Assembly (NCBI GenBank): GCA_033345235.1 | Contig: JAWPOC010000016.1 | Span: 69,026-133,025 of the forward strand | Origin: Alphaproteobacteria bacterium | Lineage (GTDB): Bacteria; Pseudomonadota; Alphaproteobacteria; Rs-D84 | Length of the DNA: 64,000 nucleotides | Direction of reading: 5' to 3' | Shown here: positions 2,955 through 22,014 of the stretch, piece by piece | How positions within the stretch are numbered: the stretch's first letter is position 1 | Layout: each line of letters starts with the position of its first letter | Made by a program: the position numbers and the translations under genes | The notes under the pieces: model-generated | What the model saw: only the letters and a program-made list of their open reading frames with translations | What the model was told of the DNA's origin: nothing | The model's database searches: none

Positions 2955-2964
2955 GAATAAACAA

Positions 2965-2988
2965 ACGACCCGATGGGTCGTTTTTTTA
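2965..2988 (+). terminator. rho-independent terminator after tRNA-Met
   Basis: CGACCC-GAT-GGGTCG hairpin followed by a T7 run. Confidence 0.6.
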
Positions 2989-2996
2989 TTCTGTGC

Positions 2997-3141
2997 GTCG
3001 GGGTGGTGATGGACACCCAGATGGGGGTCCGACCCGCAGGCAAAAGGCAGACGGGAGTATGCCGGTCCCCCGAAATTTTAACGAAGGGGGATTTGCCCAG
3101 GGGAATGAAGCGCAGCGGAATCAATCCCTCCGCTGTTACCA
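2997..3141 (+). ncRNA. GC-rich structured element of unknown identity that ends in a tRNA-Met-like acceptor/T-loop 3' end (…TCCGCTGTTACCA)
   Basis: About 65% GC in a ~35% GC genome. Several helices are predictable, e.g. CCCCC-N14-GGGGG and CAGCGGA-ATCAATCCC-TCCGCTG. It lies between two terminators. Confidence 0.3.
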
Positions 3142-3145
3142 GAAT
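3123..3145 (+). repeat. direct repeat of the tRNA-Met 3' end (22/23 nt identical to 2936-2958)
   Basis: AATCCCTCCGCTGTTACCAGAAT versus AATCCCTCCGCTGCTACCAGAAT in the tRNA. The identity extends 4 nt past the CCA. Confidence 0.7.
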
Positions 3146-3172
3146 TTCCCGGTTTTCCGGCCTTTTTTATTT
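3146..3172 (+). terminator. rho-independent terminator
   Basis: CCCGG-TTTT-CCGG followed by CCTTTTTTATTT. Confidence 0.55.
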
Positions 3173-3325
3173 CGTGTTATTTGCCCGAATTTATGCGATT
3201 TTGCGACTTTACGCAGATTGTTTTACATATACTGGACATAATTCCGGACATAGAAAATTGGTGTGCTGTGGAAAGGTGTGGTTTTTCCTGCGCTGGCAAC
3301 CCCGTCTACTGCTACAAACATAGCA

Positions 3326-3805
3326 TCACTTTTCTACACTCAATAACTTTGTTTTGGATTCGTACCAATCTGTCAGACCTTTTATCAAGAAATCTGGACG
3401 TATATCTAGTGATGACAAATCGGCAATATTATGAAATTTAAATTCTAATTTTTCTTCCTTGGATGCGATTGTATCAGGTGTTTCGGCATTAACCGCGAAT
3501 AAAATTGTGTACTCTTGATGACGTGATGATTCAATATCGCCATAAATGTTTTCAAAAAAACCTATTGGTTCACCGATTGAATAAGTAGAACCAATAGTTT
3601 CTTCTTCTAATTCGCGCACCAATGCATTAGTTGCGGTTTCGCCAAATTCAACATGACCGCCAGGTAAAAAATACCAATTTTTACCCTTTACATTAGCCAA
3701 TAATACTTTGTCGCCATTGATAATTACCGCACGAGATAAAATTTCAAATTCTTTATTCATTATATTCTTCCGGCTTTTCATTGTACAAGGAATTGTATCT
3801 TGCAA
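3326..3805 (-). CDS. NUDIX hydrolase
   Basis: Nudix box GGHVEFGETATNALVRELEEETG (GX5EX7REUXEEXGU). Confidence 0.8.
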   Translation of the reverse strand: MQDTIPCTMKSRKNIMNKEFEILSRAVIINGDKVLLANVKGKNWYFLPGGHVEFGETATNALVRELEEETIGSTYSIGEPIGFFENIYGDIESSRHQEYTILFAVNAETPDTIASKEEKLEFKFHNIADLSSLDIRPDFLIKGLTDWYESKTKLLSVEK

Positions 3806-4253: not shown

Positions 4254-4751
4254 ATGAAAAAGTTATTTGCTTTATTTTTATGTGGTTTGCCAGTCAATTT
4301 GATGGCAAATCCTGCGTGTCCAGTATGTACAATCGCAATCGGGGCAGGGCTGGATATCGCCAGACGTTTGGGCGTTCCAGATAGTGTTGTTGGACTGTGG
4401 GCCGGTGCAATGCTGGCTTTGTTAGGGTACTGGACATTGAAATTTATGGATAAAAAAAGATGGAATTTCTTTGGACGTGATGTGGTTGTTATGCTGGCCT
4501 CAATCGCGATGATTGGATTCGTTTATCTGGGGGTTACACAATATAATCCTGTACAAATTTGCGGCGTTTTCGTGATGGATCCTGTGTTGTTCGGTACAAT
4601 TTGCGGCGCGATTATCTTTATTTTAACATCAAAACTGTATCAATGGATGAAAGAAAAAAATGGTGGACATGCACACTTTCCGTTTGAAAAAGTTGTCTTG
4701 CCAGTTGTCGCGTTGGCTGTTGCCAGTTGGATTATGATGTTGTGTTTTTAA
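4254..4751 (+). CDS. hypothetical integral membrane protein (4 predicted TM helices)
   Basis: Hydrophobic segments. A TTGACT-N17-TAATAA promoter-like sequence lies upstream. Confidence 0.45.
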   Translation: MKKLFALFLCGLPVNLMANPACPVCTIAIGAGLDIARRLGVPDSVVGLWAGAMLALLGYWTLKFMDKKRWNFFGRDVVVMLASIAMIGFVYLGVTQYNPVQICGVFVMDPVLFGTICGAIIFILTSKLYQWMKEKNGGHAHFPFEKVVLPVVALAVASWIMMLCF

Positions 4752-4767
4752 ATTAAAAGGAATATAG

Positions 4768-5319
4768 ATGAAAAAAATAGAAAGTGTTCAAGAATTTGTA
4801 GAAAAATTAGATGCTGCGAAAAAGGTTAATCCAAAGGATTTATCCAGTGACCAAGATTTAACAATCGCAATAATGAACTTGATTTCTATTGAAGAACATT
4901 TAATGTTTTCTGGTGCAAAAACAGGTAAACACGAATTTTATGACTTGATAAACCAAGTTCGTGATATGCGTAAAAATGCGATGCTGAAAATAATCCCTGC
5001 ATACGAAGGCGAAGTTTGGTGCATTTCAAAACATCTGTTGGCTGCATCTATGCGCGTTTTCGAAGTCGGTACAAAAGCACTGGCGTCGGGCGATAAAAAA
5101 ACAGCATATGATTTATTCGATCAATCTTATGAATTATATTGTATGTTTTGGGGCTTGAATATGGGTGTTTTAACCGCAGAAAAAGCAACCTCAAAAAAAG
5201 CAAAAGAAACTAAATCTGCGCAACCTGTCGCCAAAGAAAAATCTGAACCCGCTGCAAAATCTGGAATGTCAAAGTTAAAAAGCTGGGTTAAGAATGCCGT
5301 TAACTGTTGCATAGAGTAA
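4768..5319 (+). CDS. hypothetical protein with a Lys/Ala-rich C-terminal tail
   Basis: ORF with RBS AAAGGAATATAGATG. No recognisable domain. Confidence 0.4.
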   Translation: MKKIESVQEFVEKLDAAKKVNPKDLSSDQDLTIAIMNLISIEEHLMFSGAKTGKHEFYDLINQVRDMRKNAMLKIIPAYEGEVWCISKHLLAASMRVFEVGTKALASGDKKTAYDLFDQSYELYCMFWGLNMGVLTAEKATSKKAKETKSAQPVAKEKSEPAAKSGMSKLKSWVKNAVNCCIE

Positions 5320-5325
5320 AATCAA

Positions 5326-5428
5326 TTATAATAAATTATCTAAAAGCGATGCCGGCAGCTCATGTACGTTTTGTACACTACACTGCCGGCATCACTTTTA
5401 TCTAAATTATTCTAATTGATTTTTTTAT
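5326..5428 (+). repeat. hairpin-loop repeat element, copy A1 (subfamily 1)
   Basis: Hairpin 5341-5400: arm TAAAAGCGATGCCGGCAG, loop CTCATGTACGTTTTGTACACTACA, arm CTGCCGGCATCACTTTTA. Conserved tail TCTAAATTATTCTAATTGATTTTTTTAT. Confidence 0.8.
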
Positions 5429-5435
5429 GGCGGAT

Positions 5436-5538
5436 AATAAATTATCTAAAACCAATACCGGCAGCTCATGTACGTTTTGTACACTACACTGCCGGCATCA
5501 CTTTTATCTAAATTATTCTAATTGATTTTTTTATATGT
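5436..5538 (+). repeat. hairpin-loop repeat element, copy A2 (tandem duplicate of A1 with 3 arm mismatches)
   Basis: Same loop and right arm as A1. The left arm is ACCAATACCGGCAG. Confidence 0.8.
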
Positions 5539-5559
5539 GGTGGAAAGATGGGGGTGAGA

Positions 5560-5633
5560 TGGTGCCCTAAGCAAGAATCGGACTTGCGACTCGTCCTTAC
5601 CAAGGACGTGTTTTACCACTAGACTATTAGGGC
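5560..5633 (-). tRNA. tRNA-Thr (anticodon GGT)
   Basis: Reverse complement GCCCTAA-TA-GTCTAGTGGTAAAAC-A-CGTCC-TTGGTAA-GGACG-…-TCGCAAGTCCGATTCTTGC-TTAGGGC-A-CCA. Confidence 0.85.
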
Positions 5634-5914
5634 AATGACCTGTTGATTATAAGAAACACTTAATAAAATGCAAGAATAAAATATTACGGGCTTTTTTATT
5701 GCAAATGTTTTTTTTCTGGTATAAAATCTTTAGCGTTGTTGTTATTTGATATGATGATGTGACTGACAACCACGGAGTATCTATGACACATAAAAAGTTA
5801 TAAATCAGGGTGGCACCGCGCAAAGATTTTTTATGCGCCCCTGAAGTTTAACAATCTGTGGGTGCCGGTATTCCTTAGATTCTGCGCCCCAAAATAAAAA
5901 AAGGGACCAATAAA

Positions 5915-7684
5915 ATGTTATCTTTGAAATCAAAGTACAGAACACATACGTGTGGCGAATTAAATTCCGAAAATGTCGGTGAAACAGTTGTCTTGTCCGG
6001 ATGGGTACATCGTAAGCGTGATCATGGGGCGCTGTTGTTTGTTGATTTGCGCGATAATTATGGTATTACACAAATCGTTTTTGATGGCGGTGATGAAAAC
6101 CTAGAAAAAGTTAGACCTGAATCTGTTATAAAAGTAACAGGTAATGTTGTCGCACGTGACGCAGCGGCTGTGAATGACAAAATACCAACAGGACACATTG
6201 AAATCCAAGCAACATCTTTTGAAGTTTTAACAAATTCTGATGTTTTGCCTTTCCAAGTATTTGGTGAAGATGAAGTTGGCGAAGAACTGAGATATAAATA
6301 TCGCTTCTTGGATTTACGTCGTGAAAAATTACACAATACTATTTTAATCAGAAATAAAATGATGAAATGGCTGCGTGACAGAATGTGGGATTTGGGATTC
6401 TCGGAATTTCAGACACCAATCTTGACCGCGTCCAGCCCCGAAGGTGCACGTGACTTTATCGTACCAAGTCGTTTACATCATGGAAAATTTTATGCTTTGC
6501 CACAGGCGCCACAGATGTTCAAGCAATTGTTGCAAGTGTCTGGATTTGACCGTTATTTCCAAATCGCGCCTTGTTTTCGTGACGAAGATTTGCGCGCAGA
6601 CAGATTGTTAGAATTTTATCAGTTGGATTTAGAAATGTCTTTTGTGGATTTGCCGGATGTCCAAGCTGTTGGCGAAGCGGTTATGCCGGATTTAGTTCGT
6701 GCGTTCGCACCAGATGCAAATGTTTATCCAGATATTCCACATATCACATTTGATGACGCAATGTTAAAGTATGGTTCTGATAAACCAGATTTGCGTAATC
6801 CAATTATAATACATGATGTAACAGATGTATTCCGCGGTTCGGATTTCGGTATCTTTGCAAATGCAATTGAAAATGGTGCTGTTGTTCGTGCTGTGCCAGC
6901 CCCAAATACAGCAGATAAACCACGTTCTTGGTTCGATAAGTTGGGAGAATATGCAGTCAAAGAATTGGGACTGGGTGGACTGGGATATATTGTTTTTGCA
7001 GATGAAGCAAAAGGCCCTGTGGCAAAAAAACTGGATGCGGAACGTATTGAAAAATTGCACCAAATTGCAGGTGATAACGCATCTTTGTTCTTTGTTTGTG
7101 ACAGTGTTGAACCGGCGTCTAAGGCTGCGGGTAAATTACGTAATAAATTAGGTGCGGATTTAGGTCTGGTTAATCCACGTGACTTTGCGTTCTGTTGGGT
7201 TGAATCTTTCCCATTCTTTGAACCAGATGAAGAACGTGCAGGCGCGCCAAAGTTTACTCATAATCCATTCTCGTTCCCGATGGCAACATTGGAAGAACTG
7301 TCTACGAAAAATCCGTTTGATATCAAGGCAGCACAATTCGATATGGTGTTAAACGGTTTGGAAATTTGCAGTGGTGGATTACGTAACTATAATCCAGATG
7401 TTATGAAAAAATGCTTTGAAATTGCAGGCTATCCAATAGAAGCAGTTGAAAAGAATTTTAGTGGTCTGTACACTGCGTTCCAATATGGCGCGCCACCACA
7501 CGGTGGATGTGCGTTCGGTATCGACAGACTGGTTTCTGAAATCACAGGATTCGGAGACAGTGTGCGTGAAGTTGTGGCGTTCCCTGCAAATCAACGTGGG
7601 CAAGACTTGTTAATGGGCAGCCCGAACGAGGTTACAGAACAACAATTGCGCGATGTTCATATCAATATAAGAAAGAAAAACTAA
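5915..7684 (+). CDS. aspS: aspartate--tRNA ligase
   Basis: Class II aaRS motifs FQIAPCFRDEDLRADR and GGCAFGIDRLV. Anticodon-binding N-terminal domain. 589 aa. Confidence 0.95.
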   Translation: MLSLKSKYRTHTCGELNSENVGETVVLSGWVHRKRDHGALLFVDLRDNYGITQIVFDGGDENLEKVRPESVIKVTGNVVARDAAAVNDKIPTGHIEIQATSFEVLTNSDVLPFQVFGEDEVGEELRYKYRFLDLRREKLHNTILIRNKMMKWLRDRMWDLGFSEFQTPILTASSPEGARDFIVPSRLHHGKFYALPQAPQMFKQLLQVSGFDRYFQIAPCFRDEDLRADRLLEFYQLDLEMSFVDLPDVQAVGEAVMPDLVRAFAPDANVYPDIPHITFDDAMLKYGSDKPDLRNPIIIHDVTDVFRGSDFGIFANAIENGAVVRAVPAPNTADKPRSWFDKLGEYAVKELGLGGLGYIVFADEAKGPVAKKLDAERIEKLHQIAGDNASLFFVCDSVEPASKAAGKLRNKLGADLGLVNPRDFAFCWVESFPFFEPDEERAGAPKFTHNPFSFPMATLEELSTKNPFDIKAAQFDMVLNGLEICSGGLRNYNPDVMKKCFEIAGYPIEAVEKNFSGLYTAFQYGAPPHGGCAFGIDRLVSEITGFGDSVREVVAFPANQRGQDLLMGSPNEVTEQQLRDVHINIRKKN

Positions 7685-13124: not shown

Positions 13125-13222
13125 CGACTTTGCATTGATAAGCGGACTTATACAAGACCCGAACCCACATCCCTAAGGTGCATAGTTTGCAAATTAAAAG
13201 ACGCCATTTTGGCGTTTTTTAA
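13125..13222 (+). ncRNA. candidate small RNA carrying a conserved 21-nt motif (CCCGAACCCACATCCCTAAGG)
   Basis: Possible TGnTATAAT-like promoter at 13106-13115. Hairpin terminator GACGCCATTTTGGCGTTTTTT at 13192-13222. The same 21-nt motif occurs at 4087-4108. Confidence 0.2.
13192..13222. terminator. bidirectional terminator between convergent tsaE and ftsA-rpe
   Basis: AAAAGACGCCATTTTGGCGTTTTTTAATTTT. Confidence 0.6.
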
Positions 13223-15003
13223 TTTTGTGTGTTTTGATGTGGTAACAGACTTTGAACAGCCAATGGAAAATCGTGCGCGCGTGCTAAATATGAACCGCAT
13301 ACCAACATATCTGCACCTGCATCCCAACAAAGCTGCGCAGTTTTATCGTTTATACCACCATCTACAGATATTGTATATTTTAAATTGTATTTTTTACGCG
13401 TGGCATTTAATACAGATATTTTATGCAATGCATCAGGATTAAACGCTTGGCCTGCTGCACCGGGGGTAACAGACATTACCATCACTTCATCAATTTCACG
13501 TAATATGCTTTTTAATATCGATATAGATGATTCTGGGTGCAAGGCAATTCCAACGCGCTTGCCAGATGAATGAACAGTGCGTATCGCAGCGCGCAGACCA
13601 GATGTGTTCGTTGATAAAATAACTGTGTCTGCACCTGAGTTAATCGCATCTTTGGCCCAAATGTTCGGGCTTTCTGTCATTAAATGTACGTGCAAGTGCG
13701 AATTTGTGTGTTGCCGTATAGTTCGTAATTCTTCGATGCTGCCAGATATTCTATCAACATAAAAGCCATCCATAATATCAACGTGTATCATTGATATGTC
13801 GCCAGACTTGAATAGCGTATATGTTTCTGGACGTAACATATTAAAGCATAATGTGCTGGGTAATATAGGTATGAATTTTTTACGGGCTTTCTTTTTTTTG
13901 CGACGGATTTTTGGAAATATATTTAAAAGCGACGCGATTTTCTTTTGTCTGGAAATAAAAGTTTGACGATGTGCCTGCTCATTCATCCAGATGTAATCAG
14001 ATAACGCACGTACAGTTGTGTCAATCGGCATAGTTTCTGTTGTAACAGCAAATGCATTTTCAATAAAGTCACGAACTCCCTCGATTTCTGCGCCACCGCC
14101 AGTCAGGATTATTTTTGTCGGTCTGTATTTTTTAAAGCTGGATTCACATTGGTCTTTGATTTGACTGATTATATCAACCATAATCGGGACAAGTGTTTCG
14201 TTTATATCAGAACGTGAAAAATCATATGCAGTGTCTGCAGGGGTAAATCTGTCCATTTCTTTTGGTATCAAAGATGAAACAGATTTTTTTATTCTTTCGG
14301 CATCTTCAAAACTTAAATCAAATTTTGTGCGGATTTCATTTGTTATATCTGTGCCGCCAGAATTTATTTTCGTGTGCATCACAGGACCACGATCTGTCCA
14401 TATCGATACAGATGTATAGCGTGCACCAAAGTCTATAAACATGGTCGTTTGTTTTTGATGTCTTAGTGATGCATTCAGTATAAAGTGCGGATCATAAAAG
14501 GCATCTGCTTGAATGTGTGCGCCGCGCAAATGTTCATGAATTTTATCCAGACCTGTACCAGAATAGCATATCGCACTGAATACAGATATTAACTGATGAT
14601 CAATAAGACCAGATGGATTTACAATATTGCGAGCATTCGGTGTGTCGTATCGCAGCGGTATTATATGCATCGGAAAATAATTTTCTGGAATATTAATACG
14701 AGATATCTGATTGCGTATGTCATTGGTCGTAATTTTATGTTCCCCAGACCAAACGGTATTCTTGGCGTTCATACTGAACTGAGATGGGCCAAAATCCCCA
14801 GTGATATATGCACTGTCAAAATGGGCGCCAATTTGTTGTTCCAGTTCATCGATAACTGTTTTTATCGCAAAAACCGTATCATAGCTGTCTGATGTAAAAT
14901 ATGCGGATTTTTCAATGTTTGCGTCTTTGATACGATGCGCAATACCGCGCACGCCACTGGTGCCAATATCCAGACATAAAAAAGATGAAACAAACAAGTT
15001 CAT
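13219..15003 (-). CDS. ftsA: FtsA fused in frame to ribulose-phosphate 3-epimerase (single 594-aa ORF)
   Basis: N-terminal actin-like FtsA (DIGTSGVRG, ...ILTGGGAEIEG, amphipathic KKIASLLNIFPKIRRKK). After the KKKKARKK linker comes full Rpe (FIPILPSTL…IHVDIMDGFYV…HLMTESP…VMSVTPGAAGQAF…ISVDGGIN). No stop codon or ATG separates them. An A8 run lies at 13891-13898. Confidence 0.7.
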   Translation of the reverse strand: MNLFVSSFLCLDIGTSGVRGIAHRIKDANIEKSAYFTSDSYDTVFAIKTVIDELEQQIGAHFDSAYITGDFGPSQFSMNAKNTVWSGEHKITTNDIRNQISRINIPENYFPMHIIPLRYDTPNARNIVNPSGLIDHQLISVFSAICYSGTGLDKIHEHLRGAHIQADAFYDPHFILNASLRHQKQTTMFIDFGARYTSVSIWTDRGPVMHTKINSGGTDITNEIRTKFDLSFEDAERIKKSVSSLIPKEMDRFTPADTAYDFSRSDINETLVPIMVDIISQIKDQCESSFKKYRPTKIILTGGGAEIEGVRDFIENAFAVTTETMPIDTTVRALSDYIWMNEQAHRQTFISRQKKIASLLNIFPKIRRKKKKARKKFIPILPSTLCFNMLRPETYTLFKSGDISMIHVDIMDGFYVDRISGSIEELRTIRQHTNSHLHVHLMTESPNIWAKDAINSGADTVILSTNTSGLRAAIRTVHSSGKRVGIALHPESSISILKSILREIDEVMVMSVTPGAAGQAFNPDALHKISVLNATRKKYNLKYTISVDGGINDKTAQLCWDAGADMLVCGSYLARAHDFPLAVQSLLPHQNTQN

Positions 15004-21340: not shown

Positions 21341-21408
21341 GTGACGTCAAATAATTACTTGATTTTGATTTCATTTATTATATAATCACAGGGCTTTGTC
21401 GATTTGTT

Positions 21409-21483
21409 GCGGGCATAGTACAAAGGCTAGTATGCAAGCCTTCCAAGCTTGAAATGCGGGTTCGATTCCCGCTGCCCGCACCA
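21409..21483 (+). tRNA. tRNA-Gly (anticodon TCC)
   Basis: Acceptor GCGGGCA/TGCCCGC, anticodon stem CAAGC/GCTTG with loop CTTCCAA, T-arm GCGGG-TTCGATT-CCCGC, encoded CCA. Confidence 0.8.
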
Positions 21484-21578
21484 GAAATAAAGTGCGCGTA
21501 GTTGAACTGGGTAACCTTGCGACGCAAACATCAATTCGTTGCTAATAACGCAACTCATTGTGTTTTTATACGTTCGGT

Positions 21579-21596
21579 TTCCCGCTGCCCGCACCA
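21579..21596 (+). repeat. direct repeat of the tRNA-Gly 3' end (TTCCCGCTGCCCGCACCA, 18/18 nt)
   Basis: Identical to 21466-21483. Lies 6 nt upstream of tRNA-Tyr. Confidence 0.65.
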
Positions 21597-21602
21597 AGGA
21601 TT

Positions 21603-21689
21603 GGGCGTGCGCCGGAGTTGGAGAGCCGGGGCAGACTGTAAATCTGTTGGCTTAAGCCTGAGTTGGTTCGAATCCAACCACTCCCACCA
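21603..21689 (+). tRNA. tRNA-Tyr (anticodon GTA), long variable arm
   Basis: GGGCGTG-CG-CCGG-…-CCGG-G-GCAGA-CTGTAAA-TCTGT-variable arm-GTTGG-TTCGAAT-CCAAC-CACTCCC-A-CCA. There is one C4:U69 mismatch in the acceptor stem. Confidence 0.75.
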
Positions 21690-21696
21690 GAAATAA

Positions 21697-21730
21697 AAAA
21701 TACCCCGTATGGGGTATTTTTTATTTTGAT
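21697..21730 (+). terminator. rho-independent terminator after tRNA-Tyr
   Basis: ACCCCGTATGGGGT followed by a T-run. Confidence 0.6.
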
Positions 21731-21910
21731 AAAGGCAAGTGGTTGGATGCACCAGAGTGGCAACGGCACGATAAGTGCCGTACGAAAATGAAATTTTCGT
21801 GGGCGATAGCCATGACACGTATGGTGAATACGCAGATAGACAATTAGAAAAATCTTAAAAAATCGCAGGTACAAGATTTTTTTGATTTTTGTTATTGTAT
21901 ATTAAGGCGA

Positions 21911-21925
21911 CAACCACTCCCACCA
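21911..21925 (+). repeat. direct repeat of the tRNA-Tyr 3' end (CAACCACTCCCACCA, 15/15 nt), followed by a terminator at 21931-21955
   Basis: Identical to 21675-21689. The downstream terminator is AACCCACGAAAGTGGGTTTTTTATT. Confidence 0.6.
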
Positions 21926-22014
21926 TTAAAACAACCCACGAAAGTGGGTTTTTTATTTCTGTTGTTGTGGTTATTATGATATAATTCTTTTGTATATTAG
22001 CGTGGGGGTGGGGT

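Follow-up and report, generated by a model that had tools for sequence, protein, structure and literature searches.

The 64-kb stretch analysed here (the window; 64,000 nt of contig JAWPOC010000016.1) derives from an uncultured gut alphaproteobacterium (Candidatus Enterousia) and carries four tRNA genes, which were called by both ARAGORN and Rfam: tRNA-Met(CAU) (2880-2954), tRNA-Thr (5560-5633, minus strand), tRNA-Gly(UCC) (21409-21483; anticodon tcc in the DNA) and tRNA-Tyr(GUA) (21603-21689). The subject of this report is a set of plus-strand elements that follow three of these genes, each ending in a copy of the 3' end of the tRNA in front of it. tRNA-Gly and tRNA-Tyr share an operon whose sole sigma-70-like promoter (TTGATT-16-TATAAT, 21359-21386) is kept in the related loci L010 and L011. 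The last 18 nt of tRNA-Gly, TTCCCGCTGCCCGCACCA, are repeated exactly at 21579-21596, at the end of the 113-nt element A (21484-21596); the likeness to tRNA-Gly spans approximately 25 nt, reaching the T loop, with one small indel. tRNA-Tyr, a class II tRNA with a C4.U69 mismatch, starts 6 nt further on, after the spacer AGGATT (21597-21602). It is followed by intrinsic terminator 1 (21691-21726), a perfect 16-bp hairpin with a T run whose strain differences are compensatory, and then by element T2 (21734-21925, ~190 nt), which ends in an exact 15-nt repeat of the tRNA-Tyr 3' end, CAACCACTCCCACCA (21911-21925). Intrinsic terminator 2 (21933-21956), detected in the promoter/terminator scan, lies behind it. 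tRNA-Met has one promoter of its own (TTGATT-16-TATAAT, 2841-2868) and is followed by a terminator (2963-2983) and by element M (2993-3141). Positions 2936-2958, the tRNA-Met 3' end plus GAAT, are repeated at 3123-3145 with 22 of 23 nt identical, ahead of a weak terminator at ~3148-3169. The intervals between tRNA and copy measure 95 nt (Gly), 221 nt (Tyr) and 168 nt (Met).

The number of exact matches expected by chance per 400 nt is 2e-10 for Gly, 3e-8 for Tyr and 1e-6 for Met, and a match of at least 12 nt occurred in none of 20000 dinucleotide shuffles. A chance origin of the copies can be excluded. A first-pass annotation, made from the letters of the window, had reported the exact Gly and Tyr copies, the terminators after tRNA-Tyr and after its copy, and a downstream end copy at three of the four tRNAs; all of this holds, with the Met copy being inexact. 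The invariable order of tRNA, spacer, repeat and terminator that it had also proposed applies to Tyr and Met and fails for Gly, whose copy precedes tRNA-Tyr and not a terminator.

tRNA-Thr is the gene without a copy of its own 3' end downstream. It is followed by 2.0 units of a 106-nt tandem repeat (5328-5534, 97% identical), each unit of which comprises a GC hairpin (GCCGGCAG...CTGCCGGC) and a T run and lacks a tRNA end copy; this repeat may be another type of tRNA-linked module. With its acceptor-stem mismatch, the tRNA-Tyr of the clade attains no more than 39 bits against the Rfam tRNA model, yet more than 120 metagenome contigs, marine ones included, contain a 5' half identical to its own.

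Metagenome contigs were scanned with the 5' half of the window's tRNA-Tyr, which yielded 120 loci (labelled by L-numbers). The Gly-Tyr order of the window was present in 59 of them, and the remainder were mostly marine Thr-Tyr-Gly-Thr-Trp operons. Comparisons were performed with the 64-kb window and ~10-kb flanks of the related loci. The proteins encoded in the flanks of the window include LolCDE, RsmI, EngB, AddB and UvrB, and the neighbouring LppC is 74-76% identical to proteins of metagenome-assembled genomes named Candidatus Enterousia sp., which are uncultured gut alphaproteobacteria. Sufficient downstream sequence was available for 51 of the 59 Gly-Tyr loci, and 27 of these 51 contain a copy of their own tRNA-Tyr end within 420 nt (at most 2 mismatches). 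The sole matches in the marine Thr-Tyr-Gly-Thr loci were T-loop similarities to adjacent tRNA genes.

Across the 59 loci, the Gly-Tyr spacer is between 6 and 172 nt long. Ten loci contain a spacer consisting of just AGGATT, GGGATT or GTGATT (6-7 nt), and the Gly copy of the window is followed by exactly this short spacer. Similarly, in several loci the CCA of tRNA-Tyr leads directly into AAAGATACACCGCAC..., the sequence found after the CCA of the last copy in filled loci. Judged by these alignments, the Gly-Tyr and Tyr-downstream intervals are cassettes with exact empty sites. Their content is polymorphic: loci L002 and L004, whose flanks are identical to those of the window, differ from it completely in the Gly-Tyr spacer and also in the first half of the region downstream of tRNA-Tyr, and each allele reappears in other species (the window type in L010, the other in L011). 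Alignment of window 21484-21925 with L002 2294-2725, L004 and L011 thus displays two whole-spacer alleles segregating within one species. The second allele combines a Gly-Tyr spacer of the type of module B (see below) with an element of a second family, T1, that breaks off at GAGGGAAT and continues as the 3' half of T2 (joint at GAAT), an arrangement that identifies it as a deletion derivative.

Two further modules were noted in Gly-Tyr spacers. Module B (CACTTCGCCAAGGCTTCGTGTGGCAGGCCAC) is present in L030, L112, L102, L051 and L053; it always begins directly after a CCA end, be it that of tRNA-Gly, of element A or of a decayed M copy, and is inverted once (L087). Module C occupies the spacers of L101, L083, L077, L045, L076, L118, L074, L110 and L078. 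Dispersed copies of modules B and T1 were not found elsewhere in the 64-kb window, none of the element families was found at other sites in it, and none matched any Rfam 15 family.

Element A was found in nine loci after tRNA-Gly; the 'empty' loci hold the 6-7-nt spacer only. It is predicted to fold into a rod-like module (z-score -3.5) with 32 pairs, of which 96.8% are paired in the alignment and two are compensatory (6 distinct sequences). The 5' strand of its P1 helix, GUGCGCG (21492-21498), is the partner of the acceptor 3' strand within the copy, in tRNA register (alignment columns 10-17 with 104-111), so that the copy provides the 3' strands of P2 and P1 and leaves ACCA free. All eight pairs of this closing helix (8/8) are formed in L023 and L029, where the copy co-varies with tRNA-Gly; the window sequence forms six and contains a C:C mismatch and a bulge. 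The 5' portion of A is similar to an acceptor and D arm. An assignment of the spacer as a decayed yet recognisable tRNA was rejected, the Rfam tRNA model giving no match even at E<=10.

Past tRNA-Tyr and its terminator, the elements fall into two families, namely T2 (140-200 nt), to which the window belongs, and T1 (~145 nt), which takes the same position in relatives and produced 34 profile hits. The copy of the Tyr end extends over 15 nt in the window and over 19-20 nt in L087, L101, L119, L106 and L120. Units also occur in tandem, as T1-T2 (L127), T2-T1 (L053, L076) or T1-T1 (L101). The T2 fold (z-score -5.9) is modelled as a three-way junction. Its P1 helix closes the element through pairing of AGUGGUUG (21738-21745) with the first part of the tRNA-end copy (21911-21918), and the CCCACCA tail of the copy remains free; P2 is a variable-hairpin domain closed by CACCA:UGGUG (21750-21754 with 21822-21826), and P3 is a long AU-rich hairpin (21840-21854 with 21884-21898). 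RNAalifold analysis of 10 sequences placed 32 pairs in five helices; compensatory changes affect 15 of these pairs, and 96.5% of the cells are paired. None of 500 shuffles attained these values, and slid alignments gave 33-49% paired cells and one to three covarying pairs. Helix 1 (columns 16-23 with 201-208) contributes three compensatory pairs and is 95% paired. For T1, a manually built structure (10 sequences) comprises 38 pairs in nine helices, with 19 compensatory pairs and 89% paired cells, compared with 30-40% in slid controls. Its five-arm layout is like that of a class II tRNA, and the arm matching the anticodon arm has a 4-nt loop.

Two other assignments were considered for T2 and rejected. 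As to a tmRNA or two-piece tmRNA, neither ARAGORN nor Rfam reported one, and a short Ala-initiated, tag-like frame in T2 is not conserved. The AU-rich 3' part of T2 gave no promoter in the scan; this region is one strand of the covarying hairpin. A separate observation concerns the 5' end of the units: each opens with an inverted copy of the 3' end of the preceding tRNA or unit, across the terminator hairpin. In the window, 21738-21748 is the 11-nt reverse complement of the tRNA-Tyr 3' region 21672-21682. A possible origin of this inverted copy is tRNA-end-templated copying.

Element M (~150 nt) carries both halves of the T arm of tRNA-Met, separated behind T-loop A58 by a 90-nt insert (3033-3122), and runs to the CCA. 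Its first half includes GGGGGTCCGA (2927-2936, the T-stem 5' strand and half of the T loop of tRNA-Met), which recurs at 3023-3032, and its final 30 nt can be folded into an 8-bp acceptor-like hairpin followed by UACCA. A second allele in L139 has the same 5' part and a different 3' part; alignment of L139 4438-4640 with window 2955-3330 places there, as the 3' half, a decayed Met copy (CGCTGCTAtCC) and then a piece resembling module B. Homology of M to T1 or T2 was not supported, as they have only short motifs in common and neither nhmmer profiles nor the T1 covariance model gave significant matches.

The models show the modules as multi-helix structures on the tRNA-sense strand, on which G.U pairs are frequent. 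Their closing helix is made of a 5' strand and the copied 3' strand of T stem and acceptor, with the terminal ...CCA left single-stranded; the top half of a tRNA is thereby imitated.

The degree of conservation was assessed from pairs of loci belonging to different species. Between the window and L010 (LppC 74% identical at the nucleotide level), identity amounts to 87% in the promoter, 72% in the leader, 100% in the tRNAs, 95.8% in element A, 72.5% in terminator 1, 93.5-95% in T2, 85% in terminator 2 and 49% in the next 60 nt. The pair L002 and L011 shows the same pattern, with 78% in the leader, 100% in the tRNAs, 98.8% in the Gly-Tyr spacer, 87% in terminator 1, 97.7% in the T body, 93% in terminator 2 and 69% in the next 60 nt. 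These identities form a mosaic and not the uniform block expected of one recent transfer, which argues for purifying selection on the elements. Over larger distances, T2 identity to the window drops with host divergence (95% at a LolD identity of 88%, and 72-80% at a LolD identity of 75-81%). Since T2 identity tracks that of LolD, T2 is ancient and vertically inherited. Overall, the comparisons show modules that are old, vertically inherited in Candidatus Enterousia and relatives, and under purifying selection.

The copies follow the tRNAs even where these vary. The clade has five versions of the tRNA-Tyr 3' end (...CAACCACUCCC, CAGCCACUCCC, CACCCACUCCC, CACCCGCACCC and CACCCGCUCCC) and two of the tRNA-Gly 3' end (CGCUGCCCGC and CUCUGCUCGC). 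For all five Tyr and both Gly ends, the downstream copy corresponds to the local tRNA variant, and the 5' strand shifts along with it so that pairing is kept. Because the copy tracks the tRNA while T2 is vertically inherited, the two evolve in concert, either through slippage or conversion between the short direct repeats or through selection.

Promoters were searched for in both operons, and none was found for A, T2 or M. In the absence of a promoter of its own, A is necessarily part of the Gly-Tyr precursor, and T2 and M, which have none behind the terminators, can be made only through read-through of the first terminator. We consider it probable, with some reservation, that the copies are the 3' termini of conserved, structured, tRNA-derived RNA modules, which are arranged head-to-tail behind the parent tRNA in the case of A, T2 and M. 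The elements most likely encode tRNA-derived RNAs that are co-transcribed with the tRNAs and would be processed in the same way. A class of CCA-tailed RNAs had been among the options listed in the first-pass annotation. It is the reading best supported here and has a precedent in the RtT RNA of E. coli; the processing into a CCA-ended RNA is the step that we infer.

The route that we envisage starts at the tRNA promoter, from which A would be made within the Gly-Tyr precursor, and T2 and M by read-through of the first terminator. RNase P would cut on the 5' side, and 3' exonucleases would trim the other end and halt at the CCA of the mimic helix. The product would be stable CCA-tailed small RNAs, like the rtT RNA of the E. 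coli tyrT operon. At the DNA level, the tRNA end and its copies constitute short direct repeats, which could make the units liable to slippage and unequal exchange; this may account for the tandem arrays and fused alleles, for the exact 'empty' sites and for the lasting identity of copy and tRNA. The same end sequence may double as a secondary attachment site for tyrosine-integrase islands.

Several points weigh against tRNA-derived RNA products. T2 and M are located behind good terminators and are promoterless, and the RNA made from them may be scarce. Pairing at the top of the mimic acceptor is often imperfect, as in the window, where A contains the C:C mismatch and bulge and positions 1-3 of T2 are unpaired, as they are in many T1 units. 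Five relatives (L010, L084, L077, L014 and L112) have a decayed copy and a persisting body, which implies that the CCA end is not indispensable. The samples are small for element A (the 6 sequences mentioned above) and element M (2 alleles). Finally, the usual preference of the 5' strand for the upstream tRNA end hints at a role in cis.

This last point leads to the alternative that the units are cis-acting elements of the tRNA transcripts and not independent small RNAs, which we regard as unlikely. The inverted copy would pair with the 3' part of the tRNA across the terminator in read-through transcripts. Such pairing could mark, cleave (e.g. via RNase III) or refold read-through precursors, with the direct copy competing as a switch. 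The duplex of the 5' strand with the upstream tRNA 3' end (including the T-loop AAUCC) is indeed more stable than that with its own copy in eight of nine T2 and seven of ten T1 units, and the window has the 11-bp perfect match of 21672-21682 with 21738-21748. Moreover, L084, L014 and L077 keep a 13-14-nt complement of the tRNA end despite the decay of their own copy, the units are promoterless, and Rfam places RtT in the cis-regulatory class. However, a tRNA folds first and is very stable, which makes it doubtful that a strand transcribed past the terminator could compete. A switch would need less than the conserved P2 and P3 of T2 and the five-helix body of T1, and element A has no terminator to bridge.

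A much broader proposal would extend the favoured reading to a general class of tRNA 'shadow' RNAs, which the tRNA machinery would make and mature and whose ends would be kept identical to those of the parent for tRNA-like handling (perhaps aminoacylation or CCA repair) or for pairing. They could serve to decoy or sense tRNA-binding enzymes, toxins or integrases, and recombination at the tRNA end that they share would spread the cassettes. The family would be widespread and would include E. coli RtT as one degenerate member, and if this were true, a previously unrecognised general class, RtT included, would have come to light. We consider a generalisation of this reach improbable at present.

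Very improbable, in our estimate, is an origin of the copies as displaced tRNA fragments (attR) of islands that were later almost wholly deleted, or as ends of mini cassettes moved by an integrase acting in trans. The T loop, where the repeats often begin, is a known sublocation of integrase crossover, and the insertions are precise against the empty sites and occur in tandem. A direct repeat of a tRNA 3' end is, in addition, the classical island signature (Islander, PMC4383910), and such a repeat is what lies downstream of tRNA-Gly, tRNA-Tyr and tRNA-Met. Relatives do have integrase or island remnants exactly at tRNA-Tyr 3'-end copies (L130, L062, L083, L045). An intact 501-aa tyrosine integrase (PF00589) directly follows tRNA-Tyr in L130 (1073-2575) and L062 (7036-8538), and integrase fragments are present in L083, L045 and L025. 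In L045 (8996-13775), two tandem island remnants, with an integrase pseudogene, lie behind the T array, and each ends in ...GCAAG|CATACTCCCACCA. Furthermore, L139 harbours a restriction-modification island (Dam-like methyltransferase, N6_N4 methyltransferase and PDDEXK nuclease; 4942-6663) behind tRNA-Met and M, where the window has a Nudix gene. As an observation on the side, approximately 160 nt of L045, comprising copy, terminator and a T1 variant, are duplicated at both ends of the island remnants.

The window itself argues otherwise. Serial integration scars in a decaying genome had been proposed in the first-pass annotation, together with a search for integrase remnants by tblastn; with the integrase of the clade as a query, this search gave no match in the window. 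The intervals of 95, 221 and 168 nt contain neither an integrase or pseudogene nor foreign cargo, and the Gly and Tyr spacers have no coding remnant. Their sequence is neither foreign nor neutral: the bodies are conserved well above the neutral flanks, diverge in step with the host and abound in compensatory pairs, and their complementary 5' strand is present and co-varies, a feature that an att scar would not carry. The true island ends in L045 have an arm sequence unlike the T bodies. Carriage of the elements by phages or other mobile contigs was likewise rejected after searches of IMG/VR, in which the core of A had 0 matches, a T2 22-mer had two (the one inspected, L248, is not T2) and a T1 motif had 98 at chance level, none of which was confirmed by the T1 model. 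For the copies in the window, integration scars are largely refuted; the copies in the clade would serve as secondary attachment sites and are not scars themselves. The suggestion that the two Cys-rich proteins encoded upstream are island cargo did not survive either. The order LolD-p285-p183-tRNA-Gly-tRNA-Tyr is conserved across the clade, in which the Cys-rich genes p285 and p183 are syntenic throughout and fast-evolving, and both are, on this gene order, resident and not cargo.

Least probable of all, non-functional tandem tRNA duplicates (pseudo-tRNAs) in decay, with 3' ends kept alike by occasional gene conversion, would account for the clear tRNA derivation (both T-arm halves in M, the class II-like five-arm layout of T1, the acceptor- and D arm-like 5' part of A) and for the decay of some copies, but neither 94-99% identity next to leaders and terminators that fall to 72-85% nor compensatory rather than disruptive changes over the sampled divergence are expected of them.

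Two coding features of the window are recorded for completeness. A pair of small genes (165 aa and 183 aa, 4254-5319) is identical in other strains (L134 and L135), where it has another neighbourhood, without tRNA-Thr or AspRS downstream and with HSP70-like and 262-aa genes added upstream. A 594-aa open reading frame on the minus strand (13219-15003) joins an FtsA/PilM/MreB-like actin-fold N-terminal part to a C-terminal ribulose-phosphate 3-epimerase domain; the same fusion was called in L001.

Among known systems, island attachment sites share with the elements the direct repeat of the tRNA 3' end past an intact gene and the tandem arrays, and in relatives the same ends are used by a PF00589 integrase. 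They differ in that a conserved, folded element of 95-220 nt with a complementary strand stands here between tRNA and fragment, and in that the modules of the window, without integrase or cargo, are vertically inherited and under selection. This has a consequence for annotation: short tRNA-end repeats are routinely taken as island boundaries, and here they would belong to resident RNA elements of which integrases are secondary users.

Spacer RNAs of the 3'ETS-leuZ type are similarly encoded, promoterless, in the internal or 3' external spacer of a tRNA operon. They are made only within the tRNA precursor and released by tRNA processing, as would be the case for the elements described here. 3'ETS-leuZ acts through base pairing with small RNAs on Hfq; it is not known to contain a copy of a tRNA end or an acceptor mimic. 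The tRNA-like CCA domains of tmRNA, viral tRNA-like structures and minihelices likewise present a coaxial helix resembling acceptor and T stem and ending in NCCA. In a tRNA, this helix is what RNase P, the CCA-adding enzyme and some aminoacyl-tRNA synthetases recognise. Unlike these domains, the mimic stems of the elements are often mismatched at the top, and there is no reading frame; ARAGORN and Rfam detected only the four tRNAs and no tRNA cloverleaf or tmRNA-like domain in the elements.

The closest parallel is RtT (RF00391; rttR) of E. coli. Repeats behind tyrT and the rtT RNA were described from the 1970s to 1991. In E. coli K-12, units of ~178 nt follow tyrV, all of which terminate in AATCCTTCCCCCACCACCA, identical to the final 19 nt of tRNA-Tyr, and the annotated non-coding RNA rttR ends at the first such CCA. 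RF00391 matches four E. coli units with 133-137 bits, and in its consensus the unit is closed by the helix GGGGAAGG(A)U : A(U)CCUUCCC, which leaves CCACCACCA free, and an inner helix uses the GGUUCGA motif. The rtT RNA is described as a processing product of the tyrT transcript whose role is unclear (bioRxiv 10.1101/2024.07.17.603846). The elements of the clade resemble RtT in that the units lie head-to-tail directly behind tRNA-Tyr, often in tandem (T2 in the window; arrays in L127, L053, L076 and L101), and in that each closes with a copy of approximately the final 19 nt of its tRNA (15 nt in the window); the CCA of this copy is also where the annotated E. coli RNA ends. In both, the 5' strand pairs with the T-loop, T-stem and acceptor 3' part of the copy, and CCACCA stays free. 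An insert interrupts the T arm after ...YCGA, and the arm resumes with AAUCC...CCA, in RtT as in T1 and M; T1 and RtT have the motif order GGUUCGA ... CGAA ... CGCAG ... GAGnnAAUCC, which M follows as well.

In contrast to RtT, the elements of the clade reside in an uncultured alphaproteobacterium and not in an enterobacterium, comprise at least 3-4 distinct body families (A, T1, T2 and M) behind three tRNAs (Gly, Tyr and Met), have their own terminator with each unit, and form polymorphic cassettes with empty sites. RF00391 gave no match in the window at E<=10 or in the T1/T2 loci at E<=1-10, the gathering threshold of 45 bits not being reached, and the T1 covariance model scored 7.1-7.6 bits (E 3-4) on RtT units; homology of T1 and RtT was thus not demonstrable by profile tests. 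The elements share the RtT design, have no detectable sequence homology with it and are modular, polymorphic and absent from Rfam, with at least three candidate RNA families (A, T1 and T2) missing from that database. E. coli RtT long looked like an enterobacterial oddity, and an independent, sequence-unrelated set with the same design now appears in uncultured gut Alphaproteobacteria. Its recurrence behind three tRNAs, together with covariation, selection and the tracking of the tRNA by the copy, suggests that the design itself is selected, and the elements of this clade provide comparative material for working out why.

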